A program made the position numbers and the translations under genes. Under the pieces are notes generated by a model. The model did not search any database. It had not been told where the DNA came from and saw only the letters and a program-made list of their open reading frames with translations. A stretch of 64,000 bases of DNA, taken from the NCBI GenBank assembly GCA_965199855.1, contig OZ241326.1:2240001-2304000 (forward strand). The letters run 5' to 3'. This document shows positions 1,232-26,306 of the stretch, one piece after another. The DNA is from a bacterium. GTDB taxonomy: Bacteria > UBA8248. Position 1 is the stretch's first letter. Each line of letters opens with the position of its first letter.

Positions 1232-1271
1232 CGGACGATGAGCGAAAAGACACCGGGCATCCGCGCTTCCT

Positions 1272-1302: not shown

Positions 1303-1394
1303 GGAATCCCACGCTGTTCTCGTTCGGCGGCGGGCGCGCCGAGACTATTTGGCCGAACCTAGCAGTATTCTCCGCCGGGGGCAAGCGGAATTCC

Positions 1395-1709: not shown

Positions 1710-1718
1710 CGCGCGCCG

Positions 1719-7100: not shown

Positions 7101-7634
7101 CAGAATGCCGCCCCTCACCGCGTATTCGCCGGGAGATTCCACGACCGATCTTCTCAGATACGTCAGCGACTCGAGCGAGCCGATGAACCCGTCGCGATCC
7201 AGCTCCATCCCCTCGCGCAGGGGAATCACGGCGGCGTCCAGCCGGGCGGGCGGAGGGATGCGCGTCGCCATCGCGGCGGCCGTCGTCAGGACGACGCCCC
7301 GCCCCCCGCCGCGCAGAAGCCGCAACGCGGCCATCCTCGCGCCGACGACCTCGCTGGAGGGCGACAGCCTCGAAAACGGATACGCATCCCACGCCGGGAA
7401 GCTCGCCGCCGGCAGGCCGGGCGCGCCCGGGTCGCCCACGAACAGCCTCATGCCCGCCTCTATCGTCTTGAGGCGGCGCGCGTCCTCCTCCACGAAAACG
7501 ACGGGGCCCTCGCGCTCGCGCGCGATTCCCGCCAGCCACCAGGCGATGGCCGCCCCGTTCGCCCCCCGCAGGCGAACGCGCTTCTCCCCCTCGAACGCCC
7601 ACCGAGAGGCCGGGGGCTTATCCGCCACGCGCAT
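4164..7634 (-). CDS. mfd: Transcription-repair coupling factor
   Basis: GEYAVRGGILD, CarD-like VVHAEHGVGRY, MDRLVCGDVGYGKT, DEEHRFG, TATPIPRT, QLRGRVGR, TRCF C-terminus; 1156 aa. Confidence 0.98.
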   Translation of the reverse strand: MRVADKPPASRWAFEGEKRVRLRGANGAAIAWWLAGIAREREGPVVFVEEDARRLKTIEAGMRLFVGDPGAPGLPAASFPAWDAYPFSRLSPSSEVVGARMAALRLLRGGGRGVVLTTAAAMATRIPPPARLDAAVIPLREGMELDRDGFIGSLESLTYLRRSVVESPGEYAVRGGILDFFSPQSAWPTRLEFRGDELDSLRDFHPQTQRNLNTRRSVEAFPAREIVLSPEELEDGRRALMEAAGAGTGARVERLLDHLEAEGRFSGIEGLAPMFLAEMSTLFDAAPGDALWVLNEPESLNEAVERLWEEVNEELRLAPERGLVSFEPGLLWLGPEEVREELSIWPRLAFDSLGLDSGGGEEAPEAGETFSAEIINPFRGRVEAFVRQLRAWRERDESVVIAAGEKTLALRVRTLLREHELGVEILPRGAPLLDERRDAALVEGRLGASFRLPDEGRVFFRAEDLLAGAPGGSARSAPRLRPGEGFRDLSENDLVVHAEHGVGRYVGTRVIEHRDGEDEFLTLQYAGGDRLYVPMDDVERIHKYHGAGAAPPLDRLGGTRWGRTKNSVKKSLRGIARDLVRLYSERSAARGHAFSGEGAFDREISAGFEFEETPDQDQAIRDVLEDMERARPMDRLVCGDVGYGKTEVALRAAARAVSAGKQVAVVVPTTLLAHQHRETFGKRFEPLPVRVETLSRFRSRKEQKEVAEGLAHGSVDIVIGTHRLLQKDVAFRDLGLLIVDEEHRFGVSHKEKLKKLRVAVDVLTLTATPIPRTMQMALSGARDLSVIETPPLHRVAPRTYISRFSEKLIREAITKEIDRGGQAFFVHNRVTSLPAMRRLLARLLPDARILVGHGQMKEKELEEVMERFVTRRADVLLCTTIIESGLDIPSVNTIMINRADTFGMAQLYQLRGRVGRDRFQAHAYLLVSAAESLTRRAKERLRALEELSELGGGFRLAMRDLEIRGAGHLLGHRQSGQISAVGFDMYCRLLEEVVQETKGEAVERLEPDVVAPVAGALPSSWIPARAERLEVYRRIASARAPGELRELAVELRDKFGELPARALHLLQLGEIRLRARLCGIKAIHVRGKEARFEVFPGDYELAAAFLDAPGVEPIDARAFRAGVRGRWAEDFDFLVQVMDALEMRRVSGEELAAEEA

Positions 7635-7715
7635 TTTCGGATTCGGCGCGGCGGCGCGCGGGAAGAGAGAGCGGGCGGATCGTTTCTGGCGGCATGAAAA
7701 TTTCCCGGAACCGGC

Positions 7716-8840
7716 CTAGTTCAGCGATTTTCTGGTGATGACGAAATCCCGAAGCACGTTGGAGGGGTTTTTGGGCAGGGCGACGTTCGCGCCGTTCAGC
7801 GATACCCGCGCTCCCGCGATGTTTCCCAGGGTGAGGGTGAATTTCCCGGACGCCCTCCAGCTCTTCTCCTCGCCCGCCAGCAAAAGGAATTCTTCCACGC
7901 CTTCCGCGTCGGCGATGATCCGCACCCACGTATCCCCGAGGGCGAAAATCCTCAGCGTGAGCGGAAAAGCGGCGGTCTCCGGGGTTCGACGCTCCCGCGG
8001 CGCGCCGGCAGCGGGAGGGTTCTCCCGCGTCGGGGGATTCCCGCCGGCCGGCGCGCTCGCCGCCGGGGGAGCGTCTTGAGCGGCAGGCGTCTTCTCCGCC
8101 GGGGCCCGCTCCGCGGGCGGAGAATTTCCCGGCGGGGCGCTTTCCCCGCCCGAAGCGTCCTCCCGCGCCCGCGGAGGCGCGCCGGGCGACGGGTTCTCCT
8201 TCTCCTCACCAGGGGACGCCTGCGGCGCGGCCGGGAGGGAGGAGCGAGCCCGCTCCGGCGCCTGCTCCTTCACCACGGAGGCGGTCGCCTCCCGCTCCCG
8301 CGCGTCCCGGCCGCCGTCCGCCTTCGTCATCAAGGGGGGAGCGTTGGCGGCGGGCGTGAGCGCGGCCCTGATTCTGGCGGGGAGCGACCCGACGAAAGCG
8401 AGCGGGTTCGTCTCTCCCTTCACGAGCCAGAGAGCCCCGCCGCCGGCGAGAAGAAAAAGCAGCACGGGCAGGGCGGCCGCCACGAATTTGACGCGCTGCT
8501 GCCGGCGGGAAGGACTGAAGCGGGCCTGGAGGTCGGAATCCGCCCCCGGCCGGTTCAACGCGGGGCCGAGCCCGATTTCCCGCCTGAAGGCGGCGGCCGC
8601 GGCGTCGGCGTCCACGCCAATCTCCTCCGCGAAGGCGCGAACGAACCCCACGCCGACCGGGCCCCTCGGCAGTCGGTCGAAAGACCCGCTTTCGATGCCT
8701 TCGAGATAATACGATCGGATTCGCGTCCGGTCGGATATGACGCGAAGGGACAGCGCCTTCTCCTCGCGGGCGCTCCGCAGGAAAGGCCCTATCCCCTCCT
8801 CTTCCATCCGCGCCATGATTTCCGGGTCGGTTTCCGCCAT
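7716..8840 (-). CDS. RodZ-like protein (N-terminal HTH, TM helix, Pro/Ala linker, DUF4115-like C-terminus)
   Basis: IGPFLRSAREEKALSL..IS.RTRIRSYYLEGIESG, one TM segment, C-terminal TWVRI.AD...LTLGNIAG...LNG. Confidence 0.85.
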   Translation of the reverse strand: MAETDPEIMARMEEEGIGPFLRSAREEKALSLRVISDRTRIRSYYLEGIESGSFDRLPRGPVGVGFVRAFAEEIGVDADAAAAAFRREIGLGPALNRPGADSDLQARFSPSRRQQRVKFVAAALPVLLFLLAGGGALWLVKGETNPLAFVGSLPARIRAALTPAANAPPLMTKADGGRDAREREATASVVKEQAPERARSSLPAAPQASPGEEKENPSPGAPPRAREDASGGESAPPGNSPPAERAPAEKTPAAQDAPPAASAPAGGNPPTRENPPAAGAPRERRTPETAAFPLTLRIFALGDTWVRIIADAEGVEEFLLLAGEEKSWRASGKFTLTLGNIAGARVSLNGANVALPKNPSNVLRDFVITRKSLN

Positions 8841-8988
8841 CACCCGTCCCCTCTTCTCGAAGCCCAACGAAACAAGTCGGGGCCGGAAGGAGCAGTATAC
8901 GCGCAAGGAGGCCGAAAGTCAACGCTCGGGAGGCGCCGCCCCTTCGCGTCGGGGAGAATCCCCCCCGCGCGGCGCGCGAAGCGGCGGC

Positions 8989-9858
8989 TCAGGGAAGGAT
9001 GGAGAGAATCGCGGGCGTCACGTCGCGGATGCTGGGGTTCGCCGCGTCCGCGAGCAGGACGTCGGCGTGTTTGCCGTAGAGCAGTATCGGGACGGGGTTT
9101 TTCGTGTGGGAGGAGGTCGAGGCGTCCTCCACGTTTCCGTGATCGCTGCTCAGGACGAACGTATCCTCCCCCGCGTCGAGCCGCCGCAGCGCGGCGCGCA
9201 AAAACCCGTTCAAATCCCTTAAAACCTCGAAGGCGTCGTCCGCGCCTCCGCGGTGGCCGACGTGGTCGGTGTGAAAAAACTCGTAGATCAGCAAATCCCT
9301 TCTCTTCGCCAGTTTTCCGAGGCGATCGCCCGCCTCCGCGGCGTCGAGCCCCGCCACCTCGTGGCCCTGCTCCGCCGCGATCCCGTTCGTGTAGTCCCGA
9401 TAGACGGCCTCTCCCCGCGCGAGATCCTCCAGGCGGTTCAGGGGGATTCCCGCGCTTTCGGCCATCACCGTGGTCACGGAGCGTCTGCGGGCGCGCCCGC
9501 GCGCGAAGAAAGGGGGCGTATAGGCGTTGGCGAACCCGACGAGCGCGCCCCGCTCCCGCGCGCGCCTGAGCAGGCCGCTTCGGCAGACGAGGCGGCGCAG
9601 GCGCTCGTTCGGCAGCCCCTGGCGGTGGCCGCCCTCCAGTTCGGGCGCGTTCGCGCCCGTGAACAGCGCGGCGCCTCCCGTCGCGCTCTGGGGAACGCCC
9701 CCGACGCCGAGGCGGGCGTCCGCCTCGATGAGCCTGAAGCCGGGCGCCCGCCCGCCGCGCAAAAGCGCCAGCGGCGGCTCCTCCAGCCCCGAGAGGGGAT
9801 TGTCCGGCCCCGGCGGGGCGACGCCCAGGCCGTCCACGAACACGAAAAGAACGGCCAT
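8989..9858 (-). CDS. Alkaline-phosphatase-superfamily metalloenzyme (phosphoglycerate mutase/phosphopentomutase-like)
   Basis: FVDGLG, PQSATG, TDHVGH, SSDHGNVED, HTKNPVP metal-binding motifs. Confidence 0.82.
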   Translation of the reverse strand: MAVLFVFVDGLGVAPPGPDNPLSGLEEPPLALLRGGRAPGFRLIEADARLGVGGVPQSATGGAALFTGANAPELEGGHRQGLPNERLRRLVCRSGLLRRARERGALVGFANAYTPPFFARGRARRRSVTTVMAESAGIPLNRLEDLARGEAVYRDYTNGIAAEQGHEVAGLDAAEAGDRLGKLAKRRDLLIYEFFHTDHVGHRGGADDAFEVLRDLNGFLRAALRRLDAGEDTFVLSSDHGNVEDASTSSHTKNPVPILLYGKHADVLLADAANPSIRDVTPAILSILP

Positions 9859-9859
9859 G

Positions 9860-10879
9860 CTAGAGCGTTCGTCCGACGGCCTCTGCGAACGCCCGCAGCT
9901 CCCCGAGCAGGGCGGCGAACCGCTCGGGCTTGAGCGACTGCGGCCCGTCGCTCATCGCCTTTTCGGGCTCGGGGTGGAGTTCGAGCATCAGGCCGTCCGC
10001 CCCGACGGCCACGGCCGCCTTCGCCAGGGGCGCGACGAACCGCCAGGCACCCGCCGCGTGGCTCGGGTCCACCACCACCGGCAGGTGCGTCTGCTCCTTG
10101 AGCACCGGCACGGCGCTGATGTCCAGCGTGTTGCGCGTGGCCGTCTCGAAGGTTCGTATCCCCCGCTCGCACAGCACCACGTTCGGGTTTCCCTGGCTCA
10201 TGACGTATTCCGCCGACATCAGGAACTCCTCGATCGTCGTGGACATGCCGCGCTTGAGGAAGATGGTCTTGTTCGTCCGGCCGACCTTCTTCAGCAGGGA
10301 GAAGTTCTGCACGTTGCGCGCGCCGATCTGCAGGACGTCCGCGTAGGCGCAGCACGCCGCGATGTCCTCGGAGTCCATCACCTCCGTCTGGACGGGAAGC
10401 CCCGTCCTCTCGCGCGCCTCCGCGAGGAGCCTGAGGCCCTCCTCCGCCATGCCCTGGAAGCTGTAGGGCGAGGTGCGCGGCTTGTAGGCGCCGCCCCGCA
10501 GCACGTGGCCGCCGCCCGCCTTCACGGCCTCGGCGGACTTCAGTATCTGCTCCCGGTTCTCCACCGAGCACGGCCCGCCGATGACGACGATGCGCTCGCC
10601 GCCGATTTCCACCCCCTCGCCCATCGGCAGACGGCTGGGCTCGGACCTGCCCTCCGCGCTCGCCAGCTTGAAGGGCTTGAGAATGGGCGTCACGCTCTCC
10701 ACGCCGTTCAGCGAGACGAGCGACTCCAGCATGTATTTTCCGCGCTCGTCCCCGATGGCGCCGATCACCGTGCGCTCCACCCCTTCCATGACGTGTTCCT
10801 TGTAGCCGAGTTCGTTGATGCTCCTGATGGCGTTTTTCACCTCATCCTTCGTCGCGCCGCGCTTCATCACGATAATCAA
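9860..10879 (-). CDS. aroF: DAHP synthase class I-beta with N-terminal ferredoxin-like/ACT regulatory domain
   Basis: TTG start with GGAGG RBS (LIIVMKRG). [50 protein letters not shown]. Confidence 0.95.
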
Positions 10880-10923
10880 GCCGAACCTCCTTCCATCCGC
10901 GCGGAACCCGCGCGCGTCTCCCC

Positions 10924-10958
10924 AAAAAAATCGCCGCGAGGCCGGAAGCCCACGGCGA
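10924..10958 (-). terminator. Intrinsic terminator/attenuator about 45 nt upstream of aroF
   Basis: Minus strand TCGCCGTG-GGC-TTCCG-GCC-T-CGCGGCGA followed by T7. Confidence 0.8.
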
Positions 10959-11015
10959 ACGTTCCTGCTCAGCGTCCGGTGGCGGGCGGCTCGTCCGCCC
11001 CCCGCCGCTCGGGTC

Positions 11016-11081
11016 TTACGAAACGGCGGGCGGACGGACGGTGATAAAGCCGAAAAAGAAGCGCCCGCCAATCGCCCGCAT
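11016..11081 (-). CDS. Putative Phe-rich leader peptide [21 protein letters not shown] (21 aa)
   Basis: ATG 11081 with GGGAG 9 nt upstream, codons TTC TTT TTC GGC TTT, TAA at 11018-11016. Lies between a promoter and a terminator upstream of aroF. Confidence 0.75.
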
Positions 11082-11102
11082 CGCGTCCGTCTCCCGGAAA
11101 TT

Positions 11103-12473
11103 TCATCTTTCGCCGAAAAACAAGGGCTTACGATAATCCCGAAGGGAGGGAGCGTCAACCCCCGACGGCGGCGATTCCCGGATGGGCGGCGAGGGGGGCG
11201 ATCCCCGGTCATCGCCCCGCGCCCGAGGAGCCGCCGGAAAAGAGACGGGTTCGGGAGAAAAGCCGCCCGCCCGCGCGTGAAAAAACGGTCGGACGCGCGA
11301 ACCCCCGCGCGCTATTTCCTCGTTCTTCCCGCTCCGGCGGCTCCGCCCCGCCCGGGGCGGCCGGACGAGCCTGCCGCCCAGAACCACGTGCGCGGCCTCG
11401 AGCATCCGGCTCCCCGCGCGCCGCGCCCCCATGCAGTCCTCGAAGGAGAACCTGCCCTCCTTCATCCGGAACACGGCGACGTCGCCCCGGGCGCCCTTCT
11501 TGAGCGTCCCCACCTCGTCTTTCAGGCCAATCCACTCCGCCGCCGTCTGCGCGCTGAGCCGCACCACCTCGGAGAGGGGAAAGCCGAGCGCCAGAAACTT
11601 GCTCATCAGGGTCGGAAAGTCATACACCGGCCCATGAAGGCAGTGGGCATGGAGGTCGGTGCTCAGGTTGCCCGGCATGAGGCCCTGGGCCATGGCCCTC
11701 TCCAGAATCTCGAAGCTGAAGCTCGAGCGCCCGTGGGCTACGTCGAGCAGGACGCCCGCATCCCGCGCCTCCCACACCGCGCGGCGCACCCGGCCCCGCC
11801 TGTCCAGAATGTTCTCGCGCCGGCCGTGAAACGCATGGGTGAGCACGTCGCCCGGGCGGAGTTTCCTGAGAATTCTCGAGAGGGGGACGGGCGTATCCCC
11901 CACGTGCGCCATGAGCGGAACCTTGAGGAACTCCGCCGCCTCGAGCGCCGCGTCCAGGGGCCTGGCGCCGCTGCCCTCCACCACGTTGCGGCTCAGGCGC
12001 ACCTTCATGCCGATGAGATGCTCGCGGTTCCTCTCGTAGCACTCCACCGCCCTGTCCACCCGAAGCGCGCGCATGTCGACGTTCTCGCCCAGGCCGTCGA
12101 TGAGAAGCCCGCCCTCGGAGATGTTCAGATAGGCGCGAACCGTCGGCCGCGCCTTCTCCAGGAACCATTTCCGGAAGGCCGGATAGGTCTGCGCGCCGGC
12201 GCTGCCCGTGTCCACCGCCGTCGTCACCCCGCGCGCGAGCATCGCCGCCTCCAGGCTCACGCCGTAGTGGGTCACGCCCTCGTAGAAGTGGCAGTGGAGA
12301 TCGACCAGGCCCGGTGTGACGATTTTCCCCGCGGCGTTCAGGGCGCGCCTCCCCGCGGGATCGATGCGGGGCGCCACCCTCCGCACGCGGCCGCCGGCGA
12401 TTTCCACGTCCATCGTCCCCTCCAGCCCCTGGGAGGGATCGATGACGTAGCCGCCGCGTATGACGATGTCCAT
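11103..12473 (-). CDS. Amidohydrolase / dihydroorotase-like metallohydrolase
   Basis: [22 protein letters not shown] (HxH), [31 protein letters not shown]. The last roughly 70 codons look like an unconserved read-through tail. Confidence 0.88.
11130..11158 (-). promoter_or_regulatory. Sigma70-type promoter for the leader-aroF transcript
   Basis: TTGACG-N17-TATCGT on the minus strand. Confidence 0.6.
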
Positions 12474-12655
12474 CCCCGAAGCTCCCCGGAGAAGCGAGGC
12501 GCGCGCCGGAATCCCCGGCGAGGCCCGGCGCAATCCCGAATCGCCGGGACGCGGCGCCGCTCCGCCGGGCGCGTTGACACGCAATCGCCGCAGGGTGGAT
12601 CATGGCGGGCGTCGAGCGCAACCATCATCCCAAACCAGCCTGCGGGAGCCGCGAG

Positions 12656-13828
12656 ATGAGCCTGCAAACCGAAGCCGCGCTTCAGTTCGACCTGGACGAC
12701 ACGCAAAAGATGCTTCGCCGGACGGTGCGGGAGCTCTCCGAGCGCCACATCGCCCCGCGCGCCGCCGAAATCGACGAGAACGAGGAATACCCCGAAGACA
12801 TCTATCAGATGCAGAAGGAGCACGGCCTCCTCGGCATCTTCTTCCCCGAGGAATACGGCGGCGGCGGAATGGGCTTTCTGGGCGGCTGCGTCGCCATCGA
12901 GGAGATCGCGCGCTTCTGCTCGAACTCCCCGCTCTTCATCGTGCTCAACATGCTCTCGAGCCGCGTCATCGACCTGAGCGGCACGCCGGAGCAGAAGACG
13001 CATTATATGACGGGCCTCGCCAGGGGCGAACTTCGGGGCTCCTACGCCCTCACGGAGCCCCACGCGGGCTCCGACGCCGGGAACATCCGCACGCGCGCCG
13101 TCCGGGAGGGCGAGGAGTGGGTCATCAACGGGACGAAATGCTTCTGCACGGGACCCGACAAGGCGGACTTCATCACCGTCGCCGCCAAGACCGACCCCGG
13201 CGCGGGCGCGCGGGGCATCACCTACTACGTCGTCCCCACGGACGCGCCCGGCTTCAGCATCGACAAGCACGAGCGCAAGATGGGGATGCGCGGCATCTCG
13301 ACCTGCATGCTGCGCTTCGACAGCGTGGCCGTGCCCCTCGAGAACCAGATCGGCGAGCTGAACCAGGGCTTCAGAACCGCGATGATCGGCTTCAACCAGA
13401 TGCGGCCCGCCATCGGCGCGCGCGCGGTCGGCCTCGCCCAGGGGTGCCTCGACTACGCCGCGGGCTACGCGAAGGAGCGCGAGGCCTTCGGGAAGCCCAT
13501 CGCCCGCCACCAGGCCGTCCAGTTCATGCTCGCCGACATGTTCATGGACATCGAGGCGTCGCGCCTGCTCGTCTATCGCGCCGCCTCGATGGTGGACGCC
13601 GGACAAATCGGCAAGGAGAACGCCCGGTATTTCTCGACGGCCAAGACCTACGCGGCCGACATGGCGATGAAGTGCGCGATAGACGGCATCCAGGTGCTGG
13701 GCGGGGCGGGCTACATGAAGGATCACCCGCTCGAGCGCTTCATGCGCGACGCCAAGCAGATCCAGATCGTCGAGGGGACGAGCCAGATTCAGCGGATCAT
13801 CATCGCCCGCAACCTGCTCGACCTCTAG
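12656..13828 (+). CDS. Acyl-CoA dehydrogenase (copy 1)
   Basis: PEEYGGGG, ALTEPHAGSD, INGTKCF, KMGMRG, REAFGKPI..HQAVQF, QVLGG.GY, IVEGT. Confidence 0.95.
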   Translation: MSLQTEAALQFDLDDTQKMLRRTVRELSERHIAPRAAEIDENEEYPEDIYQMQKEHGLLGIFFPEEYGGGGMGFLGGCVAIEEIARFCSNSPLFIVLNMLSSRVIDLSGTPEQKTHYMTGLARGELRGSYALTEPHAGSDAGNIRTRAVREGEEWVINGTKCFCTGPDKADFITVAAKTDPGAGARGITYYVVPTDAPGFSIDKHERKMGMRGISTCMLRFDSVAVPLENQIGELNQGFRTAMIGFNQMRPAIGARAVGLAQGCLDYAAGYAKEREAFGKPIARHQAVQFMLADMFMDIEASRLLVYRAASMVDAGQIGKENARYFSTAKTYAADMAMKCAIDGIQVLGGAGYMKDHPLERFMRDAKQIQIVEGTSQIQRIIIARNLLDL

Positions 13829-13840
13829 GAGCGCGCGGAG

Positions 13841-15010
13841 GTGGGGCCGGGGGCGGAGCCGCCCGCCGCGTTCGGGCTGAGCCGGGCGCAGCGAGCGCTG
13901 GGAGAGAGGGTCTATGCGCTGAGCCGCCGCCGCGTCGCGCCCCGCGCCGCCGACATCGACGAAAGCGGGGAATACCCCGAGGATATTTTCCAGCTCCTGA
14001 AGTCCCGCGGCCTCCTCGGCCTCTACGTCCCCGAAGAATACGGCGGGGCGGGCCTCGGCGTCCTGGAGACGTGCGTCGCCATCGAGCAGATGGCGCGCTT
14101 CTGCTCGAACTCTCCCCTTTTCTTCTCCGTCCACCTGCTCGCCACCCGCGCCGTCGCCATAGGCGGAACCGGGGCGCAGAAGAGCGTCTGGCTCCGCGGC
14201 GTAGCCCGGGGCGAGCTGCGCCCCGCCTTCTCGCTCACCGAGCCGCACGCGGGCTCCGACGCCGCGAACATATCGGCGCGCGCGGCGCGGGAGGGGGACT
14301 CGTGGGTCATCAACGGCCAGAAGTGCTACTGCACCGGCGCGAGCGTCGCCGACTTCCTCACCGTGGCGGCGAAGACCGAGGCCGGGGCGGGGGCGCGCGG
14401 CGTCTCCTTCTTCATCGTTCCCAAGGGCGAATTCCGGGTGGGCCGCCGCGAGAGGAAGATGGGGATGCGGGGAATCCCCACCTGCGAGGTGTTTTTGGAG
14501 AACGCCCACGTCCCCCTCGAAAACATCATCGGCGATCGGGCGACGGGCTTCAGAACCGCCATGCTCGGCTTCAACCAGGCGCGGCCCGCCATCGGCGCGC
14601 GCGCGGTCGGCCTCGCCCAGGGGTGCCTCGACCACGCCGCGGGCTACGCCAAGGAGCGCGAGGCCTTCGGGAAGCCCATCGCCCGCCATCAGGCCGTCCA
14701 GTTCATGCTCGCCGACATGTTCATGGACGTCGAGGCGTCGCGCCTGCTCGTTTACCGCGCCGCCTCGATGGTGGATAATGGGCGCTATCAAAAGGAGGAC
14801 GCGCATTTCATCTGCGCCGCGAAGTGCTTCGCGTCCGACGCGGCCATGAAGGCGGCCGTGGACGCGGTTCAGACCCTGGGCGGGGCGGGCTATACGAGGG
14901 ATCACCCGCTCGAGCGGTTTATGAGAGACGCCAAGCAGCTGCAAATCATCGAGGGGACGAACCAGATTCAGCGCATGGCGATCGCCCGGAATCTGCTGGG
15001 CCTGAACTGA
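13841..15010 (+). CDS. Acyl-CoA dehydrogenase (copy 2)
   Basis: Same motifs (LTEPHAGSD, KMGMRG, IIEGTNQIQ); tandem paralog of copy 1. Confidence 0.95.
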   Translation: MGPGAEPPAAFGLSRAQRALGERVYALSRRRVAPRAADIDESGEYPEDIFQLLKSRGLLGLYVPEEYGGAGLGVLETCVAIEQMARFCSNSPLFFSVHLLATRAVAIGGTGAQKSVWLRGVARGELRPAFSLTEPHAGSDAANISARAAREGDSWVINGQKCYCTGASVADFLTVAAKTEAGAGARGVSFFIVPKGEFRVGRRERKMGMRGIPTCEVFLENAHVPLENIIGDRATGFRTAMLGFNQARPAIGARAVGLAQGCLDHAAGYAKEREAFGKPIARHQAVQFMLADMFMDVEASRLLVYRAASMVDNGRYQKEDAHFICAAKCFASDAAMKAAVDAVQTLGGAGYTRDHPLERFMRDAKQLQIIEGTNQIQRMAIARNLLGLN

Positions 15011-15040
15011 CGCCTCGCTTCCCGCCGCCGGAGGTTACGG

Positions 15041-15661
15041 ATGAGCCGGACCATTGAAATTCTCACGCCCACCTCGTTCGTCCGCGCGGGCGATCATCCC
15101 CTGGCGGCGCGGCCGGGAGAGCTCGGCGGACTCAGAATCGGCTTTTTCCACAACAACAAGCCGAACGCCGACGCCCTCCTGGAGCGCATCGAGGAGCTCC
15201 TCGCGCGGGAGGACGAAACCCTCCGCTTCGTCCGCTGGGGAAAGCCGAACCCGACGCTGCCGGAGGCGCGCCTCGGCGAGTTCATCAAGCAGGTGGACGC
15301 GGCCGTCTGCGCGGTGGGCGACTGAGGCAGCTGCACGTCGTGGAGTATCCACGACGCGGTGGAGATGGAGAAAGCGGGGATTCCGACGGCCACGTTCTGC
15401 TCCAGCGAATTCTCCGCCCTGGGCGCGAACGAGCGGGTCGCCCTGGGGATGCCGGGCCTTCCGATAGTCGTCGTGCCGCACCCCGTGGGGGGGATTCCGC
15501 CCGAACGGGCGCGCGCCCTGGGGGACGCGGCGCTGGACGAGGTTCGGCGCGTCCTCACGGAGGACGCGGAATCGCTGCGAAGGGAATACCGCGAGCGCGC
15601 CTACGCCCCGCCCCGCCGGACGGTGCGCCACAAGGCGCTTTTCGCCCGGGGGTCGGCGTGA
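15041..15661 (+). CDS. UGSC-family selenoprotein (Sec at TGA 15323-15325), 206 aa
   Basis: ORFs 15041-15325 and 15359-15661 are in the same frame and joined by a single TGA: VDAAVCAVGD-U-GSCTSWSIHDAVEMEKAGIPT. This gives a UxxC motif, with a SECIS-like hairpin downstream. Confidence 0.88.
15336..15356 (+). promoter_or_regulatory. Bacterial SECIS-like hairpin
   Basis: CGTCGTGGA-GTA-TCCACGACG, a perfect 9-bp stem with G in the loop, starting at the 11th nt after the UGA. Confidence 0.8.
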
Positions 15662-15707: not shown

Positions 15708-16799
15708 ATGAGCGATCCCTCCTCCGAAGCGCCTCCAGAAGCGGCGTCCCTCCCGAGCGAGCGGGTGAAGGTTCGGGACGCGCCCGAGGCGCTCGCGCGT
15801 CTCCTCGAGGCGAGGGGATGGGGCGACGGCCTGCCCGTCGTTCCCCCCACGCCCGGGCGCGTCGCCCGCATGGTGGAGGGGGCGGGGCTGGCCGCTGGGG
15901 AGGAAATCGGCCGGATGCCGCCCCGCCAGGGAGTCGTCACGGTCGAGGCGCTCGCCGTCAACGCCGTGATGGCCGGATGCCTCCCGGCCTACATGCCCGT
16001 TCTCGTGGCGGCGGCGCGGGGGGCGCTCCAGCCGGAATTCTCGCTCCACGCGCTCCAGGCGACGACCCACCCGGTGGCGCCCCTGATCATCGTGAACGGC
16101 CCCGTCGCCGCGAGAATCGACATGAACGCGGCGTATGGATGCTTCGCCCCCGGAAACCGGGCGAACGCGACGATTGGCCGCGCGATGCGCCTGACGCTCC
16201 TGAACGTAGGCGGGGCGAGCCCGGGCGTTCTGGATCGCGCCACCCAGGGCTCGCCCGCGAAATACGCATTCTGCATCGCCGAGAACGAGGAGGAATCCCC
16301 CTGGGAGCCGCTGCACGTCGAGCGCGGCTTCGCGCCCGGGGAGAGCGCCGTCACGGTCGTGGGCTGCGAGGGGCCCCACAACGTCAACGATCACGTGAGC
16401 CACGCGGCGGAGGGCATTCTCGCCGCCGCCGCCGACACGATGTCCGTCATGGGCGGCAACAACTTCTATCTGAGGGGCGAGCCGCTCCTCGCGCTCGGCC
16501 CCGAGCACGCGGCGACGATAGCGGGGGACGGGCTGTCGAAGGCGGACGTGAAGCGAAGGATTTTCGAGCTCGCCCGAAAGCCCGCGCGCCAGCTCCGGCG
16601 CGGCGCCATGTGGGGGATGCAGACCTGGGGGGAGGAGATAGCGAGAAACGAGGGAGATGACGACTACGAGATTCCGCTTCTGGATCGGCCCGAAGACCTC
16701 ATCGTCATCGTGGCGGGCGGCGCCGGCAAGCACTCCTCCTACCTGCCGACGTTCGGCCCCACGCGCTCGGTGACCACCCGGGTCGATTCGCCGGCCTGA
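15708..16799 (+). CDS. Conserved protein of unknown function, partner of the UGSC protein
   Basis: Motifs GWGDGLPVVPPT, AVNAVMAGC, GNRANATIGRA, AENEEESPWEPLH, VAGG.GKHS. Strong GC3 coding bias. From recall, this family typically neighbours UGSC genes. Confidence 0.8.
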   Translation: MSDPSSEAPPEAASLPSERVKVRDAPEALARLLEARGWGDGLPVVPPTPGRVARMVEGAGLAAGEEIGRMPPRQGVVTVEALAVNAVMAGCLPAYMPVLVAAARGALQPEFSLHALQATTHPVAPLIIVNGPVAARIDMNAAYGCFAPGNRANATIGRAMRLTLLNVGGASPGVLDRATQGSPAKYAFCIAENEEESPWEPLHVERGFAPGESAVTVVGCEGPHNVNDHVSHAAEGILAAAADTMSVMGGNNFYLRGEPLLALGPEHAATIAGDGLSKADVKRRIFELARKPARQLRRGAMWGMQTWGEEIARNEGDDDYEIPLLDRPEDLIVIVAGGAGKHSSYLPTFGPTRSVTTRVDSPA

Positions 16800-16976: not shown

Positions 16977-17378
16977 ATGCCGAAGCAGCAGATCGACTCG
17001 GAGAAGGTGAGGCCGGTGGCCGCGTATTCCACGGGCTGGAAGGTGTCGAACGGGCATCTCGTCATGCTGGCGGGCCAGGTGGCGACCGACACGGAGGGCC
17101 GCACCGTCGGCGGAGACGACATCAAGGCCCAGGCGCGGCAGGTCTATGAGAACGTCAAGGCCGCGCTCGAGGCCGCCGGCGCCGGAATGGAGGACGTCAT
17201 CCGCCTCACCGTCTATCTCACGGATCGGGCGAATTTTCCGGGAAGCGCGGAGGTGCGGCAAGCCTACTTCAGCCCGCCCTATCCGGCGAGCACGCTCCTC
17301 ATCGTGAGCGGACTGGCGAACCCGGAATGGCTCATCGAAATCGACGCCGTCGCCTTCGTGGAGGACGGGACGCCGTGA
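16977..17378 (+). CDS. Rid (YjgF/YER057c/UK114) family protein
   Basis: AYS, LAGQV, QARQVYENVKAALEAAG, YPASTL, LIEIDAVA. Confidence 0.92.
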   Translation: MPKQQIDSEKVRPVAAYSTGWKVSNGHLVMLAGQVATDTEGRTVGGDDIKAQARQVYENVKAALEAAGAGMEDVIRLTVYLTDRANFPGSAEVRQAYFSPPYPASTLLIVSGLANPEWLIEIDAVAFVEDGTP

Positions 17379-18232
17379 GAGGCGGCAGGGCGGTTTCCGA
17401 GACGCTCGTTCTCGTGAAGGGGGGCGGCGACCTCGCCACCGGCGCGGCGCACCGCCTGCGCCGCTCGGGCTTTCCCGTGATGATGACGGAAATCGAGCGT
17501 CCGACCATGGTCCGCCGCGCCGTCTCCTTCGCCGAATGCCTCTACGCCGGCGAATGGCGGGTGGAGGGCGTGGCTTCCGCGAGGGCGGAGGGCGGCTCCC
17601 TGGAGGAGAAAATCGCCGGCGCGCGCGCGCTGATGGAGGCGGGCGCCGTTCCCGTGATGGTCGATCCGCGCGCCGAGGCGGTCGCCCGCGTCCGGCCCGC
17701 CGTCGTGATCGACGCGATTCTCGCCAAGCGAAACCTCGGCACCCGCATCGAGGACGCCGAGGTGGTCATCGGCCTGGGGCCCGGCTTCACGGCGGGGGTC
17801 GATTGCCACGCCGTCATCGAGACCGCCCGGGGGCACGACCTGGGGCGGGTGATACTCGAAGGGGCGGCGAAGCCGGACACGGGCGCGCCGGGCGCCATCG
17901 CGGGCTACGCCGCCGAGCGGCTGCTGCGCGCCCCGCGCGCCGGCGCGTTCGCCTCCGCCGCCCGCATCGGGGACGCGGTGCGGGCGGGACAGGCCGTCGC
18001 CCGGGTGGACGGGGAGGAGGTGACGGCCCGCATCGACGGCGTCCTGCGCGGCCTGCTCAGGGACGGCATCGAGGTGAGCGCGGGCTTCAAGGTGGGCGAC
18101 GTCGACCCCAGGGCCGAGCCTTCCCACTGCGTGACGATATCGGACAAGTCGCGCGCCGTCGGCGGCGGCGCGCTCGAGGCCGTCATGATGTTCCTGTTCG
18201 GCGTCTCCCCGGCCGCGGAGCGCGCGAATTGA
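17375..18232 (+). CDS. yqeB: Selenium-dependent molybdenum hydroxylase system protein, YqeB/EF2563 family
   Basis: VKGGGDLATGAAHRL, PTMVRRAVSF, DAILAKRNLGT, IGLGPGF, ETARGHDLGR, LRGLL.DG, KVGDVDPR, ISDKSRAVGGGALEA. GTGA overlap with the rid gene. Confidence 0.93.
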   Translation: MRGGRAVSETLVLVKGGGDLATGAAHRLRRSGFPVMMTEIERPTMVRRAVSFAECLYAGEWRVEGVASARAEGGSLEEKIAGARALMEAGAVPVMVDPRAEAVARVRPAVVIDAILAKRNLGTRIEDAEVVIGLGPGFTAGVDCHAVIETARGHDLGRVILEGAAKPDTGAPGAIAGYAAERLLRAPRAGAFASAARIGDAVRAGQAVARVDGEEVTARIDGVLRGLLRDGIEVSAGFKVGDVDPRAEPSHCVTISDKSRAVGGGALEAVMMFLFGVSPAAERAN

Positions 18233-19113
18233 GTCCCGACATTCTGGCGGAAACGGTGGAAAGCGGCGCCTACCGCATCGGGCGCAGCGAAATCCCGATC
18301 AACCAGGCGAACGGCAACGCCTTCGTCCCCCCCGCGCAGTTCTATCTGGCGGCGGGCGACGCGCTCGAGCGCATCGCGTGGGCGGTGAGCCAGAACCTCC
18401 CCGTCCTGCTCGTCGGAGAGACCGGCGTCGGCAAGACGCTCTCGGTGCGCTACCTCGCCCACATGACGAACAACGGCTTCAGGCGCGTGAACCTCAACGG
18501 CATGACCACGGTCGATGAATTCGTGGGCAAGCTGATGATCAACGAGCAGGGCACCTACTGGGTGAACGGCATCCTGATCGACGCGATGCAGTCGGGAGAC
18601 TGGCTGCTCATCGACGAGATCAACGCCTGCCTGCCCGAAATCGCCTTCTGCCTCCACAGCCTGCTCGACGACGACCGCATGATCGTCCTCTCGGAGTATG
18701 ACGGCCGCGTCGTCAAGCCCCATCCGGACTTCAGGCTCTTCGCCAGCATGAACCCCCACGAGGACAGGAGATACGGCGGCACGAAGCCCCTGAACGAGGC
18801 GCTTCTGGATCGCTTCCCCGTCACCGTGAGGATGGACTACCTGCCCTTCGAGGCGGAGGTCGAGGTCATCATGCGGCAGAGCGGGAACGGCGACGAGGAG
18901 CTCGTCCGGCGCATGGTGCGCGTGGGCCACGACGCGCGCGAGGCCATGAGGAACGAAAAGGTGTTCTGCACCTTCAGCACCCGGCGCCTGATTGACTGGG
19001 CGCGCATGGCGGCGCGGTTCGACCCCATGGAGGCCGCCGTCTCGACCATCTTCAGCAAGGTCAACTCGTTCGACGCCAAGGTGCTCGAGGACATCGTGGA
19101 CAACCACTTCTAG
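18229..19113 (+). CDS. MoxR-class AAA+ ATPase, CbbQ/NirQ/NorQ type
   Basis: TTG start overlapping the yqeB stop. Walker A GETGVGKT, Walker B LLIDEIN, FASMNP, ALLDRF and a CbbQ-like C-terminal STRRL. Confidence 0.92.
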   Translation: MSPDILAETVESGAYRIGRSEIPINQANGNAFVPPAQFYLAAGDALERIAWAVSQNLPVLLVGETGVGKTLSVRYLAHMTNNGFRRVNLNGMTTVDEFVGKLMINEQGTYWVNGILIDAMQSGDWLLIDEINACLPEIAFCLHSLLDDDRMIVLSEYDGRVVKPHPDFRLFASMNPHEDRRYGGTKPLNEALLDRFPVTVRMDYLPFEAEVEVIMRQSGNGDEELVRRMVRVGHDAREAMRNEKVFCTFSTRRLIDWARMAARFDPMEAAVSTIFSKVNSFDAKVLEDIVDNHF

Positions 19114-19128
19114 CCGGGAGACGCAGGC

Positions 19129-20898
19129 ATGGAGCGCCGACGCGCCCGCCTCGAGACCCTCGCGCAGGTGACGGCGCGCGACTACGGCCTCGCCCTGCTG
19201 TTCGGCTCCCGGACGGAGACCGGGGACGACGCCGTCCTCGTCGAGGACCCGGAGCGGACCCTGGCGCGCCTGGGCGGCGGCCTCGACGACGAGCGCGTCC
19301 TGCGATACCAGAAGGGCATGACGCTCATCGAGGTGGCCCGCAGGCTCCAGGGGACGCTTCGCTGGGCGGGCCGCGCGGCCCTCGCCAACCGGGAGACGCC
19401 GGGCCTTTTCCACCTCTGGCGCGCCCTCGAGGACGCCAGATGCGAGAACCGCCTCGCCGAGTCGCTGCCCGGCACGAGAAAGAATTTCCGCGCCTTCGTC
19501 CGTCCCGCGATCGAGGACGCCGAGCGAAGCCACGCGCGGGGGGAGCTCCCCCTGCTTCTCCAGATTCAATGGGGCATCTACCTCGCCGGCGTCGGCCAGA
19601 CGCCCGGCGCCGCCTCCTCAAGGCCCGGGGATTTGCCCTCGGCCTGGTTCGATTCCGTCATCGCCCAGATTCTTCAGAGGCTCGTCCCGATCATCGACCG
19701 CGCCTGCGCGGCCAAAGAGCCGAAGACCGCCTTCGACTGCGCGAACGAAATCTACGACGCCGTGCGGCGCTTCCTCACCGAGGAGCAGCTCGCGCAGATG
19801 CGCGAGAGCGAGGAGCTCTCGGAGCTTCCGGATGAAATTCTGGAGAAAATCGAGAACCAGAAACTCCAGGGGGAGGAGTCCGAGTCGCCGGAGGCGCTCC
19901 ACCCGGAGGCGCTCGACGAGGTGGACGCGGACGAGGGCGAGCAGGTCGAGCTCACGCCCGAGGAGCTCGCCGCCCTGGGCCGCTGGGCGTCTCCCTGGTT
20001 CGAGATGGAGGGCGGCGGGAAGGAAGTCCACCCGACGGCGGAGCATCCCGACGAGCGCACCATCGTCCTGCCCCCGGAGGGCAAGGCGGAGGAATACGCG
20101 GCGATCATGGACGGCGCGGGCAGCCACATCAAGGTGCTGGCGTGGAAGCTCACGCAGATCATTCAGGAGAGAGCCTACGCCCGCTTCAGCGGCTCGCACC
20201 GCTCCGGCAAGCTGAACGTCCCGAAGCTCTGGAAGCAGCGCCTGGGCAAATTTCATCTTTTTCACCGCAAGGAGGAGCCCGAGAAGCTCGACGTCTGCTT
20301 CACCCTCCTCGTGGACGAGAGCGGCAGCATGAACCGCGAATCGAAATACGTAGCCGCCAGGGAGGCGACCGTGTTCTTCGCGGAAGTCCTCGACCGGCTG
20401 GACGTGCCCTTCGAGGTGATCGGCTACTCCACCGAGAGCTCGGAGGCGGCCATGGCGGCCGCGCTCGGCCACATCCCCGCCTTCAAGTTCAGGCACATCC
20501 GGCACTCCCCCCTTCAGCACCGCATCTACAAGGGCTTCGAGGACGCCTTCCCCCAGGTCAAGAACCGTCTCGTCAACATTTATCCGCGCTTCAACAACTG
20601 GGACGAGGAGCATCTGCTGTTCGCCTACCGAAGGCTCAGCCAGCGGCCCGAGGAGGAGAAGATCATCATCATCACCTCGGACGGCCAGCCCAACGGCGAC
20701 GCGGCCCACCTCGTGAGCGCGGTCGGCCGCCTCCAGGCGCTCGGCGTGCGGATCATCGGCGTCGGCGTGGTGGACCCCTTCGTCGAGCAGATCTACCCGA
20801 ACCACATCGTGGTGCAGGACCTCTCCCAGCTCTCCACGGAGCTGGTGAACATTCTGCGGCGCGAGCTGCTCGGGGGGGCGGAGGGCCGCCCTTGGTAG
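19129..20898 (+). CDS. VWA-domain protein, CbbO/NorD/CobT-like
   Basis: N-terminal LEDARCE, acidic linker, SGKLN, MIDAS DESGS, ITSDGQPN. Confidence 0.88.
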   Translation: MERRRARLETLAQVTARDYGLALLFGSRTETGDDAVLVEDPERTLARLGGGLDDERVLRYQKGMTLIEVARRLQGTLRWAGRAALANRETPGLFHLWRALEDARCENRLAESLPGTRKNFRAFVRPAIEDAERSHARGELPLLLQIQWGIYLAGVGQTPGAASSRPGDLPSAWFDSVIAQILQRLVPIIDRACAAKEPKTAFDCANEIYDAVRRFLTEEQLAQMRESEELSELPDEILEKIENQKLQGEESESPEALHPEALDEVDADEGEQVELTPEELAALGRWASPWFEMEGGGKEVHPTAEHPDERTIVLPPEGKAEEYAAIMDGAGSHIKVLAWKLTQIIQERAYARFSGSHRSGKLNVPKLWKQRLGKFHLFHRKEEPEKLDVCFTLLVDESGSMNRESKYVAAREATVFFAEVLDRLDVPFEVIGYSTESSEAAMAAALGHIPAFKFRHIRHSPLQHRIYKGFEDAFPQVKNRLVNIYPRFNNWDEEHLLFAYRRLSQRPEEEKIIIITSDGQPNGDAAHLVSAVGRLQALGVRIIGVGVVDPFVEQIYPNHIVVQDLSQLSTELVNILRRELLGGAEGRPW

Positions 20899-21719
20899 CG
20901 GAAGGCGGCCTCGCGCGGATGATCGGCGCCCGAGCGGGGCGGATCGTCGCGGCGGTCGGGGCGGGGGGGAAAACGAGCCTGCTCACGGCGCTCGCCCGGG
21001 AGTTTCACGCCCGAAGCGGCGCGCCCGCCCTCCTCACGACGACCACCAGAATTTTCGCGCCCCTGCCGGAGGAGGGGATTCCCCTCGCCCTGGGCGACGC
21101 CGCCGCCCTCTCGAGGAGGCTGCGCCCCTACATGAGAGCCTGCGGCGTCTCCTGGCTCGCCCGCGGACGCGAGGGCCGCGCGCCGGTTCCGGGCCGGGAG
21201 GGCGAGCGCCGCATGAAGCTGCGCGGCTTCGCGCCCTCCGAAATCGAGGGATTGCGTCTCGCGGAGGGCCTCACCCTCATCGAGGCGGACGGGGCGAGGC
21301 GCCTGCCCGTCAAGGCGCCCGGCGCGCGGGAGCCCGTCCTGCCCGAAGGCGTGGACGCCGTGCTGGGCGTCGTGGGGCTGGACGCCCTGGGCGCGCCCCT
21401 GGACGAGGCCCATGCGTTCCGCCCGGAGCTGCTCTCGCGGATATGCCGCCTGGACGCCGGCGCGGAGATCACGGCGGAGGCGATCGGGGCGCTGTGCGCG
21501 CACCCCGAGGGGCTGTTTCGCAAGGCGGACGGCGGCGCGCGCAGGTGGATCGTCCTCAACAAGGCCGATTTGGAAGCCTCGCTGGAAAAACGAAGAAAGA
21601 TCGCCTATACTATCCGGGAAATGGCGGGAAAGCCCCATGGGCCGGCGGACGGGGTTCTCCTGACCTCCTGCCTGAAGAACAGGCCGGAAGTTTTGCTGCG
21701 AATCGGGCCGGACGCCTGA
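20892..21719 (+). CDS. yqeC: Selenium cofactor biosynthesis accessory protein YqeC
   Basis: VAAVGAGGKTSL, LTTTTRI, LIEADGARRLPVKAPG.REPVLP, VVGLDALG, HPEGLFR, LNKAD. Start is either TTG 20892 or ATG 20919. Confidence 0.9.
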   Translation: MVAEGGLARMIGARAGRIVAAVGAGGKTSLLTALAREFHARSGAPALLTTTTRIFAPLPEEGIPLALGDAAALSRRLRPYMRACGVSWLARGREGRAPVPGREGERRMKLRGFAPSEIEGLRLAEGLTLIEADGARRLPVKAPGAREPVLPEGVDAVLGVVGLDALGAPLDEAHAFRPELLSRICRLDAGAEITAEAIGALCAHPEGLFRKADGGARRWIVLNKADLEASLEKRRKIAYTIREMAGKPHGPADGVLLTSCLKNRPEVLLRIGPDA

Positions 21720-21749
21720 GAGGAGGCGGCCCGCCTGCGCGGAGGAGAG

Positions 21750-22895
21750 ATGAGCGAGGACGTTTTCAGGGAAATGGCGAGGATGAAGGAGAAGGGGCAG
21801 GCGGGCGCGCTCGCCACCGTCGTGGCCCGCAAGGGCTCCGCGCCCATGAGCGGCGACGCGAAGATGCTCGTGCGCGAGGACGGCAGCGCCGAGGGCACCG
21901 TCGGGGGCGGCTGCCTGGAGGCCGAGGTCTGGGAGACCGCGATGAGCGTCCTCGAAACGGGCGCGCCCGAGAAGCTCTCCTTCGACCTCACCCAGAAGGA
22001 GGCGGAGGACAGCGGCCACATCTGCGGCGGCGTGGTGGAGATACTGGTGGAGCCGCTCCGGGCGTTTCCCCGGGAGCTGCTCGATGAGATCAACCGCGTG
22101 AAAAACCGGGGCGGAAGTGCCGCGCTGGCGACCATCGTCCAGCCGGGGGCGCTCGACATCCCGAAGCCCGAGGCCGGGAAAATGCTCTTCAGGCGCGACG
22201 GCAGCTCCGTGGGGGAAATTCCGCGCTATTCGGCGGAAGTCTGGGCGGAGAGCGCGCAGGTGATTCGCCAGGGCAGCCCCACCCTCCTGCACTTCAGCCA
22301 GGGCGCCGCGCGCGGCGGAGGAAAGAAGCCCGCGCCCGGCGAGGCGACCGAAATTTTCGTGGAGCCCATCTCCGGCCAGCCGCTCGTCTATATCTTCGGC
22401 GGCGGGCACGTATCCTTCTGCGTCGCGCAGGCGGCCTGGCTCGCCGGCTTCCGGGTCGCCATCGTGGAGGACAGACCCTCCTTCGCCAACAAGGAGCGCT
22501 TCCCGATGGCCGAGGCGTTCCACGTGGGCGATTTCCCGGAAGTTTTCAGGGAAATTCCGGTGGACGAGGCGGACTACCTGGCCATCATCACCCGGGGCCA
22601 CGCGAACGACGAGGTCGTCCTCGAATGGGCGATGAAGACGAAGGCGCGCTACATCGGGATGATCGGCTCGAAGAGCAAGGTGCTGCTCACCTACCGCCAT
22701 CTTCAGGAGAAGGGCTTCGCGCGGAGCGAGCTCATCGAGCGCGTCCACGCGCCCATCGGCCTGGACATCGGCGCCGACACGCCGGGCGAGATCGGAATCG
22801 CCATCGCCGCCGAGTTCGTCCGCCATCGCCGCCGGGGCGAGGCGGAAAGCGAGGGCGCGGGCAGCAAGCGGGTGCGCCTGGGAAGAAAGGCGTAA
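21750..22895 (+). CDS. xdhC: XdhC/CoxF family molybdenum-cofactor chaperone
   Basis: ATVVARKGSAP, GTVGGGCLE, ICGG, FGGGHV, TRGH..D, YIGMIGS, APIGLDIGADTPGEI. Confidence 0.92.
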   Translation: MSEDVFREMARMKEKGQAGALATVVARKGSAPMSGDAKMLVREDGSAEGTVGGGCLEAEVWETAMSVLETGAPEKLSFDLTQKEAEDSGHICGGVVEILVEPLRAFPRELLDEINRVKNRGGSAALATIVQPGALDIPKPEAGKMLFRRDGSSVGEIPRYSAEVWAESAQVIRQGSPTLLHFSQGAARGGGKKPAPGEATEIFVEPISGQPLVYIFGGGHVSFCVAQAAWLAGFRVAIVEDRPSFANKERFPMAEAFHVGDFPEVFREIPVDEADYLAIITRGHANDEVVLEWAMKTKARYIGMIGSKSKVLLTYRHLQEKGFARSELIERVHAPIGLDIGADTPGEIGIAIAAEFVRHRRRGEAESEGAGSKRVRLGRKA

Positions 22896-25783: not shown

Positions 25784-26293
25784 TTGGGAGAGAAGGGCGC
25801 GAGCGCGCGGAGGACGACGCGCAAACTCCATGAGCTCGGCTTCACGCACGTCCTGATGATTCCGGACAGCGAGAGCCGGCTCCTTTACGAGGCGCTGGAG
25901 CGCGACGAGAGGATCGACCTCATCACCCCCTGCCGGGAGGGCGAGTCCGTCGCCATCGCCGCGGGGCTCTGGACGGGCGGCCAAAAGCCCCTGCTCGTGA
26001 TTCAGAACACCGGGCTGATGGAGGCGGGAGACGCCCTGCGGGGCTGCGGGACGGGCCCCGGGGCGCCTTTGCGGATGATGGTCGGCTGGCGGGGATACGG
26101 CGGGGCGACCGCCGGAAAGCTGCCGATTGATTCGGCCTACGCCTTCACGGAGCCCCTGCTTGAGGCTTGGAGAATCCCGACCTGGCGGCTCATGTCCGAC
26201 GACGACCTGGGGGCGCTCGACCTGATGGACGAGGCGGCGGCGTCCGCCTCCTACCCGGCGGCCGTCCTCACCGGCTACGGGTTCAGACCATGA
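25784..26293 (+). CDS. ThDP-dependent decarboxylase alpha subunit (sulfopyruvate/phosphonopyruvate decarboxylase, ComD-like)
   Basis: IPDS, REGESVAIAAG, IQNTGL pyrimidine-binding domain motifs. Confidence 0.8.
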   Translation: MGEKGASARRTTRKLHELGFTHVLMIPDSESRLLYEALERDERIDLITPCREGESVAIAAGLWTGGQKPLLVIQNTGLMEAGDALRGCGTGPGAPLRMMVGWRGYGGATAGKLPIDSAYAFTEPLLEAWRIPTWRLMSDDDLGALDLMDEAAASASYPAAVLTGYGFRP

Positions 26294-26306
26294 GGGGCGA
26301 ATCCTC

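Follow-up and report, generated by a model that had tools for sequence, protein, structure and literature searches.

Introduction

The UGSC family was named in 2007 as a selenoprotein family without assigned function (PMC1976440) and is also catalogued in two other papers (PMC13188914, PMC9312934). In an ocean survey, it was the fifth commonest selenoprotein family, with 255 sequences (PMC2398784, Table 2); the same source proposed a thioredoxin-like fold for it and presented a fusion of UGSC to a domain labelled Unknown_1 (Fig. S1A and supplementary file 1). Both the family and its fusion to the partner discussed below are, then, matters that were in print by 2007-2008. The other systems that bear on this work are glycine and proline reductase, in which a selenolate attacks the substrate, a nearby thiol releases it and a selenenyl sulfide forms (PMC10298544, PMC11229817). 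A literature search that covered few subscription papers returned none that links UGSC to GrdB or gives its fold, and the comments of the family models NF041046 and PF24696 may already state the link. UGSC is absent from the main text of bioRxiv 10.1101/2022.07.06.499078.

Here we describe a UGSC gene in a 64-kb window, by which we mean the whole stretch of bacterial DNA that was analysed (64,000 nucleotides), and compare it with related genes and with the reductases named above. Our main reading combines four elements: recoding of an in-frame UGA as selenocysteine (Sec), a two-component enzyme formed with the product of the next gene, GrdB-like chemistry and re-reduction by thioredoxin. For this chain as a whole we estimate a probability of about 0.5, and its parts are of unequal strength. 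What is new is that the earlier thioredoxin guess is replaced by a link to GrdB and that a near-constant partner is named.

The UGSC gene and its in-frame TGA

The gene lies at 15041..15661 on the forward strand, with a GGAGG ribosome-binding site visible in the sequence at 15030..15034 (+), 6 nt 5′ of the ATG at 15041, and encodes 206 amino acids when the TGA at 15323..15325 (+) is read as Sec. The initial annotation had seen two in-frame ORFs joined by this single TGA into D-U-G-S-C, and a re-reading of the sequence agrees: 94 codons (ORF 15041-15325) precede the TGA and 111 codons follow it up to the TGA at 15659-15661, so that the read-through product has V-G-D-U-G-S-C-T-S-W around the Sec and zero further internal stops. 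The predicted Sec95, the first residue of U-G-S-C, aligns with the Cys of homologs and with the Sec of GrdB, and the codon of Cys98, the second redox residue of the Sec-x-x-Cys centre, is at 15332-15334 (+). The start Met agrees with that of the four closest relatives (loci L001-L004), which terminate with TAG four codons before the true TGA stop of the window gene; in both halves of the gene, the differences from these relatives fall mainly at third codon positions.

Assignment to the UGSC family, also proposed at the outset, is borne out by NF041046, with a score of 136.4 bits for the read-through protein against a cut-off of 125, and by PF24696, with 161.8 against 25 (E 2e-47) over residues 6-173. 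The U/C-G-S-C motif is present at the family position, and the window protein continues past the family model with a 30-residue C-terminal extension. The suspicion that standard gene callers would truncate such a gene is confirmed by the database halves that end before or start after the TGA: proteins P0003 and P0138 stop at the codon before it and P0137 is the C-terminal half alone. Two plasmid records likewise annotate the UGSC gene as truncated or split hypothetical proteins. The gene call is therefore a correct rescue of a selenoprotein split by annotation pipelines, from a family already modelled in both NCBIfam and Pfam.

Two further readings of TGA were considered and rejected. Another Sec encoded by the terminal TGA (15659) finds no support in the closest relatives, which end earlier at TAG stops, or in the folding, with no hairpin 3′ of it (z +0.5); in some homologs a C-terminal Cys had aligned with this TGA, an artefact of a query in which the stop was kept as a residue. 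Genome-wide reassignment of UGA is ruled out, since TGA is the ordinary stop of 32 of the 50 window genes and the organism thus does not decode all UGA as sense.

Conservation of the Sec position was followed in two samples. The protein sample held 163 database matches (all 14 of one search and the best 150 of 1,010 in another, one being shared). Among its 148 full-length homologs, 140 have Cys at position 95, and the second Cys, at the position of Cys98, is kept in 131, some members lacking it. For the DNA sample, GTDB genomes were scanned with the downstream partner protein and the best 80 of 585 loci were used; a UGSC gene is present in 78 of these 80 partner-selected loci. Of the 87 UGSC genes in these loci, 78 carry TGA and 9 carry a Cys codon; these counts are inflated by kinship, as are the codon counts given below, related genomes not being independent samples. 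One row (L018:9981), a misaligned second envelope, was removed from the codon and pairing counts. The TGA is held at one position across many phyla, the locus genes coming from Chloroflexota, Rokubacteria, Pseudomonadota, Acidobacteriota, Binatota, Nitrospinota, Bacillota and Actinomycetota, and a quick tree of 85 rows, built without the 3 of 88 whose N-terminal part was short, explains the Cys state with 4-5 changes. Together with a hairpin conserved at the RNA level, the Cys homologs and the conserved TGA uphold the original claim of a selenoprotein. Cultured, non-pathogenic hosts with Sec or Cys forms are Paracoccus, Acidovorax, Variovorax, Roseovarius, Arthrobacter and Natrinema.

A few members of these samples deserve mention in their own right. 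A Cys-type subgroup (P0002, P0004-P0009) has a C-terminal C-P-L/I motif that is absent from the window protein. A further Sec-type UGSC copy, found on the replicon of L001, groups with a Nitrospinota locus. A binning error probably explains locus L055, which bears an archaeal label (Nitrosocosmicus) but contains a UGSC gene that falls within Rokubacteria and includes a hairpin of the bacterial type.

A search of the 64-kb window for tRNA genes (tRNA-Sec included), sel genes and SelA, SelB and SelD motifs found none. Elsewhere, selA and selB flank a TGA-type UGSC copy on a Paracoccus plasmid (L086), and a tRNA-Sec gene is present in locus L034. On that plasmid (CP038202.1, Paracoccus ferrooxidans, 1-14667) the UGSC gene, complete with TGA and hairpin, is annotated as two hypothetical proteins, and dsrE, tusA and cysteine desulfurase genes lie nearby. 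With 48-54 selenoprotein genes, three Nitrospinota-labelled genomes (GTDB UBA8248) rank among the ten richest in BSepDB (PMC13326102, Table 2), and the host of the window may be of that lineage.

The predicted SECIS hairpin

The candidate SECIS element lies within the coding sequence (15336..15356, +; codons 99-106) and was assessed by folding, consensus, covariation and a codon test. It begins at the 11th nt 3′ of the UGA, and its perfect 9-bp stem, in which 15336-15344 pairs with 15348-15356, encloses a GUA loop at 15345-15347, the UGA-to-loop spacing being 19 nt. Folding of 15326-15360 gives -17.5 kcal/mol (z -2.8), with 5 of 200 shuffles equal or better, and z is weaker in two longer stretches (-0.4 and -1.2). 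There are 8 distinct perfect stems of at least 9 bp in the window, and no perfect stem of that length was found in the 30 nt after any of its 32 true TGA stops. A second perfect 9-bp hairpin occurs in the same gene at 15548-15568, with no UGA 5′ of it, and is probably a chance occurrence.

The initial annotation likened this hairpin to the SECIS of E. coli fdhF. That element has a bulged U in its upper stem, GU in its loop and a larger loop than GUA. The likeness holds for the GU common to both loops and for the general bacterial consensus; the window hairpin differs in its perfect stem, its smaller, 3-nt loop and its missing bulged U. With no bulged U in the stem, the label fdhF-type is a loose one and the likeness only general. 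Agreement with the bacterial consensus, which comprises four rules (PMC13188914, section 5 and Fig. 2A legend), extends to the 3-nt loop, the 9-bp stem, a loop with G first and then U, the spacing of 19 nt and an energy below -7.5 kcal/mol. However, a loose SECIS consensus test is also passed by 10 of the 32 true TGA stops of the window, so that, at 68% GC, a consensus match by itself carries little weight; 6 of 9 Cys-coding homologs pass the same test. Rfam gave no match at the hairpin site.

The comparison of related genes is more informative. In 79 TGA genes including that of the window (73 distinct sequences), 86.9% of cells pair and 7 of the 9 pairs vary on both sides, the structure having been drawn from one of the compared sequences; none of 500 shuffles matched these values, and sliding the partner strand lowered pairing to 19-49%. 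At stem pair +18:+24, 52 distinct sequences have G-C and 17 have C-G. In L001-L004, pair +15:+27 changes from G-C to A-U through two synonymous changes, and the outermost pair is lost. The codon test concerns Ser102, whose codon holds the loop GU: the TGA genes have AGT 64 times and AGC 0 times at this position, as against AGT 40 and AGC 176 for the Ser codons elsewhere in the same genes and AGT 13 and AGC 300 in the window genes, while Cys genes have AGC 3 times and AGT 0 times at Ser102. The loop GU is kept in 75 of 79 TGA genes; among the 9 Cys genes, only three, from Mycobacterium, keep it, and these have lost the stem. Comparison thus shows, at the sequence level, a hairpin that is conserved as RNA, a predicted SECIS under selection. 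It offers a clean example of a SECIS maintained by codon choice within a conserved protein motif. It is almost certain, judging from these comparisons, that the UGSC gene is one recoded gene, the UGA of which would be decoded by SelB-dependent Sec insertion, with the hairpin (codons 99-106) as the directing element.

The partner gene

A gene of 363 codons (15708..16799, +) starts 46 nt downstream of the UGSC gene and encodes what is, by fusion and adjacency, a probable second subunit. This partner matched no Pfam or NCBIfam family and has at least 7,991 homologs, the nearest named one (70%) being labelled Nitrospinota. Its conserved residues include T120, H121, R158, D176, H224, N225, D228 and H342. 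Its domain is the Unknown_1 of PMC2398784 (Fig. S1A), the alignment of which it matches at the AVNAVMAGC segment; its fusion to UGSC was therefore already known. The domains are fused there and encoded by two separate genes in the window, and the portion of PMC2398784 that describes the fusion does not report the near-constant adjacency that we find. Neither the partner gene nor the GrdB likeness treated below was part of the initial annotation.

Of the 87 UGSC genes, 15 are fused to the partner, 44 stand immediately upstream of it, 17 immediately downstream and 11 at a greater distance, and a fused or adjacent pair occurs in 71 of the 80 loci, which had been selected by the partner. Under the reverse selection, the partner is present in 7 of 7 plasmid loci picked by a UGSC match (8 of 175 records were sampled, and one proved to be GrdB, leaving 7). 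Both domains are on one protein in 25 of the 163 database matches, and the 3 longer UGSC proteins found contain no additional Pfam domain. It is very probable, on the grounds of fusion and adjacency, that the UGSC product and its partner act as a two-component enzyme. No third conserved gene stands beside the pair, the commonest neighbours occurring in 11-17 of 81 loci. An apparent second-commonest neighbour cluster turned out to be an antisense frame of the partner, and the gene that separates UGSC from its partner in L008 and L009 encodes a DUF6282 protein and is not trxB. Several UGSC or partner copies occur within 20 kb in L037, L043, L062 and L070-L072, L037 having four tandem partner genes.

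The structure model of the partner (pLDDT 92.9) had no match at Z >=8 in a search of 48,161 chains and 453 Foldseek picks, which barely covered the N-terminal 90 residues, so that a new fold is not established. The best structural match reaches Z 6.5 and spans 90 residues. A match to class I fumarate hydratase alpha (7xky_A), with a Foldseek E of 6e-3, Z 5.5 and an rmsd of 5.4 over 190 residues, is within the chance range. The ESM Atlas gave no usable match for the partner, and a sequence search of the PDB, with protein or profile, gave none for either UGSC or the partner.

Relationship to GrdB and PrdB

When 114 UGSC family members were searched, matches at E <=0.01 were to TIGR01917 GrdB (27 members), GrdF (12), TIGR01918 (11), PrdB (6) and GrdH (4), every other non-UGSC family being matched once at most; Pfam gave no recurrent glycine-reductase match among UGSC members. 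The UGSC profile scores 27.8 bits against a real GrdB, that of the Acetoanaerobium grd operon (L081, a locus that had been picked as a weak match, E 3), and the best of 300 shuffles reaches 2.6. In hhalign, UGSC and GrdB align over 71 columns with a probability of 95.5 and Sec on Sec. The match is limited to the C-terminal half, spanning residues 84-176 or, in hhalign, 83-159. Two PrdB-like proteins, encoded in L032 and L078, aligned in register with scores no better than shuffles; PrdB/GrdB-like genes with an in-frame TGA lie in these loci (L032:2-292 and L078 about 17700-18500), less than 10 kb from UGSC pairs.

Comparison thus shows the Sec segment of UGSC, as a predicted protein, to be homologous to that of GrdB. 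The relationship is a distant one. The window protein is far under the family cut-offs (21 versus 602 bits for TIGR01917, 15 versus 65 for TIGR01918), and tblastn with GrdA, GrdC and GrdE of L081 against 88 loci and the window matched L081 alone, which leaves the UGSC loci without the carbonyl-activating subunit of the Grd and Prd systems. Given the short match, the scores below cut-off and the loci without Grd genes, UGSC is best described as a distant relative of GrdB and not as a member of its family.

Proposed function and alternatives

In the mechanism that we propose, the hairpin in codons 99-106 would direct SelB-dependent Sec insertion at the UGA, and the 206-residue UGSC product would pair with the product of the next gene as a two-component reductase for a small organic substrate. 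With the substrate held by the partner, the Sec selenolate would attack an electrophilic atom, Cys98 would resolve the adduct to leave a selenenyl sulfide, and the thioredoxin/thioredoxin-reductase system would re-reduce it. The same mode of action as in GrdB is the most likely one because the Sec-x-x-Cys centre is homologous. Re-reduction by thioredoxin is proposed because 3 of 7 plasmid loci have trxB next to the pair and a UGSC-TrxB fusion exists (P0264); a trxB-like gene occurs in 3 of 80 genome loci and none in the window. By analogy, GrdB-like attack, resolution by Cys98 and re-reduction by thioredoxin have, in our judgment, an even chance of being correct.

The neighbourhood bears on the substrate. 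Two acyl-CoA dehydrogenase genes (12656..15010, +) lie directly upstream of the UGSC gene with a 30-nt gap and are probably on the same transcript; a sigma-70-like site is found at 12574-12603, and there is no terminator-like site between the acyl-CoA dehydrogenase and UGSC genes. In 81 loci, counted with no background control, the neighbours include short-chain dehydrogenases (17), acyl-CoA dehydrogenases and CoA-transferases III (14 each), 3-hydroxyacyl-CoA dehydrogenases (12) and flavin monooxygenases (11). These neighbours point weakly to the catabolism of organic acids or CoA esters, possibly sulfur-containing. Phosphosulfolactate synthase genes lie near two Cys-type pairs (L084, L085), and DUF6282 occurs near pairs in 8 of 80 genome loci (L008, L009, L020, L025, L028, L031, L033, L061) and in L084; both are possible hints at sulfur or amide substrates.

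Other genes of the window may be recorded here. At 25784-26891 there is a two-gene thiamine-pyrophosphate enzyme, like the subunits of sulfopyruvate/phosphonopyruvate decarboxylase and below the cut-offs, and similar pairs are found near the UGSC loci L059, L066 and L080. Citrate/methylcitrate synthase, aconitase and PrpF-like genes stand in a row at 45696-49873, a probable propionate-use cluster, and a PyrR binding site (RF00515) lies at 1198-1306 (-), upstream of a pyrR-pyrB-like pair.

As a tentative extension, on which we would not insist, UGSC and its partner may be a widespread, hitherto undescribed two-subunit selenoenzyme, a pared-down relative of the glycine-reductase Sec subunit, that reductively cleaves a C-heteroatom bond, perhaps C-S, in organic acids or CoA esters in aerobic and facultative bacteria of many phyla, with the partner in place of the pyruvoyl subunit and thioredoxin as the donor. 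If true, this would give a catabolic role to one of the commonest environmental selenoprotein families and take Stickland-type selenium chemistry beyond anaerobes.

The alternative that survives best, possible though on balance doubtful, is that the gene encodes a real selenoprotein that works as a general thiol-disulfide oxidoreductase, or as a redox servicing subunit that reduces cysteines of the partner or of other proteins, with no GrdB-like bond cleavage. A U-x-x-C motif at the start of a helix is typical of thiol oxidoreductases, and in the UGSC model (Cys for Sec, pLDDT 92.7) Sec95 sits at the start of helix 96-111. Neighbouring trxA and trxB genes and the TrxB fusion are compatible with such a role, and Cys91 of the partner is kept in 119 of 120 close homologs, but in just 15 of 19 fusions. 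The fold speaks against it. The model is an alternating beta/alpha sandwich, with strands 32-37, 62-67, 87-93, 116-121 and 142-145, a helix after each and no beta-hairpin; the order of elements in the thioredoxin fold includes a C-terminal beta-hairpin. With a helix after every strand and no hairpin, the model is unlike the thioredoxin-like fold proposed in PMC2398784, which, in its treatment of the family, placed UGSC among the thiol oxidoreductases. Among the structural matches listed, the best, with Z up to 10.8 and an rmsd of 3.2 over 128 residues, are of Rossmann-like, flavodoxin-like or periplasmic-binding-like type, and none is outstanding. GrdB, PrdB and thioredoxin chains are absent among the matches listed, which excludes neither relationship. 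The conserved non-Cys residues N38, K40, D94, D105, H147 and P148 follow strand ends, an arrangement that suggests a small-ligand site and so counts against a general oxidoreductase.

It is improbable that the protein carries selenium for, or helps to mature, selenium-dependent molybdenum hydroxylases, acting with yqeB, yqeC, xdhC and the AAA+ and VWA genes. This idea comes from the block at 16977..22895 (+), which follows the partner and encodes a Rid-family protein, YqeB (347.6 bits, cut-off 220), an AAA+ ATPase, a VWA protein, YqeC (164.9 bits, cut-off 73) and an XdhC-like protein, a context of Se/Mo cofactor maturation. The yqeB, yqeC and xdhC-like genes lie 0.6-6 kb downstream on the same strand, no terminator-like site was found between the genes up to 18300, and a xanthine-dehydrogenase-family subunit is present in 5 of 81 loci. 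The block is probably a maturation block for such hydroxylases, syntenic in L001-L004; yqeB together with yqeC marks the selenium trait if SelD is present too (PMC9312934). However, yqeB and yqeC are confined to the window and these four closest relatives (5 of 81 loci), outside the conserved UGSC-partner pair, and Cys-type pairs occur in haloarchaea and actinobacteria with annotated neighbours that include no such genes.

That there is no recoding at all, the TGA being a nonsense mutation, the end of the first of two small genes or a codon of a genome that decodes all UGA as an amino acid, is very hard to sustain: the halves do exist as separate database proteins, a search of the window showed no Sec machinery and the loose SECIS test lacks specificity in this DNA, but the TGA position is constant across many phyla, both halves diverge from L001-L004 at third positions, the hairpin covaries, TGA ends 32 of 50 ordinary window genes and, in the model, the break would cut one five-stranded sheet between strands 3 and 4.

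Comparison with known systems

We therefore retain, as the main reading, a recoded selenoprotein that would act with its partner in a GrdB-like manner and be re-reduced by thioredoxin. Given the partner, the GrdB link and the cultured hosts, the old question of UGSC function becomes testable.

At the family level, the window protein is the same as the UGSC family of NF041046 and PF24696, with the motif, Sec and Cys forms and a match over nearly the whole model. It differs from other members in its setting, the operon of the window copy, which also contains acyl-CoA dehydrogenase genes and yqeB/yqeC, being specific to its clade. Unlike GrdB, UGSC is less than half as long, has neither grdA, grdC and grdE nor a pyruvoyl-type partner, is paired with a protein unrelated in sequence and is found in hosts that include aerobes. 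The likeness to GrdB, GrdF, GrdH and PrdB (TIGR01917, TIGR01918, TIGR04483) lies in U-G-S-C and U-G-T-C in register, in the next helix, in a G-x-P strand and in an H-P motif. As in GrdB and PrdB, the Sec subunit of UGSC is paired with a second protein, and thioredoxin genes lie near some of the loci.
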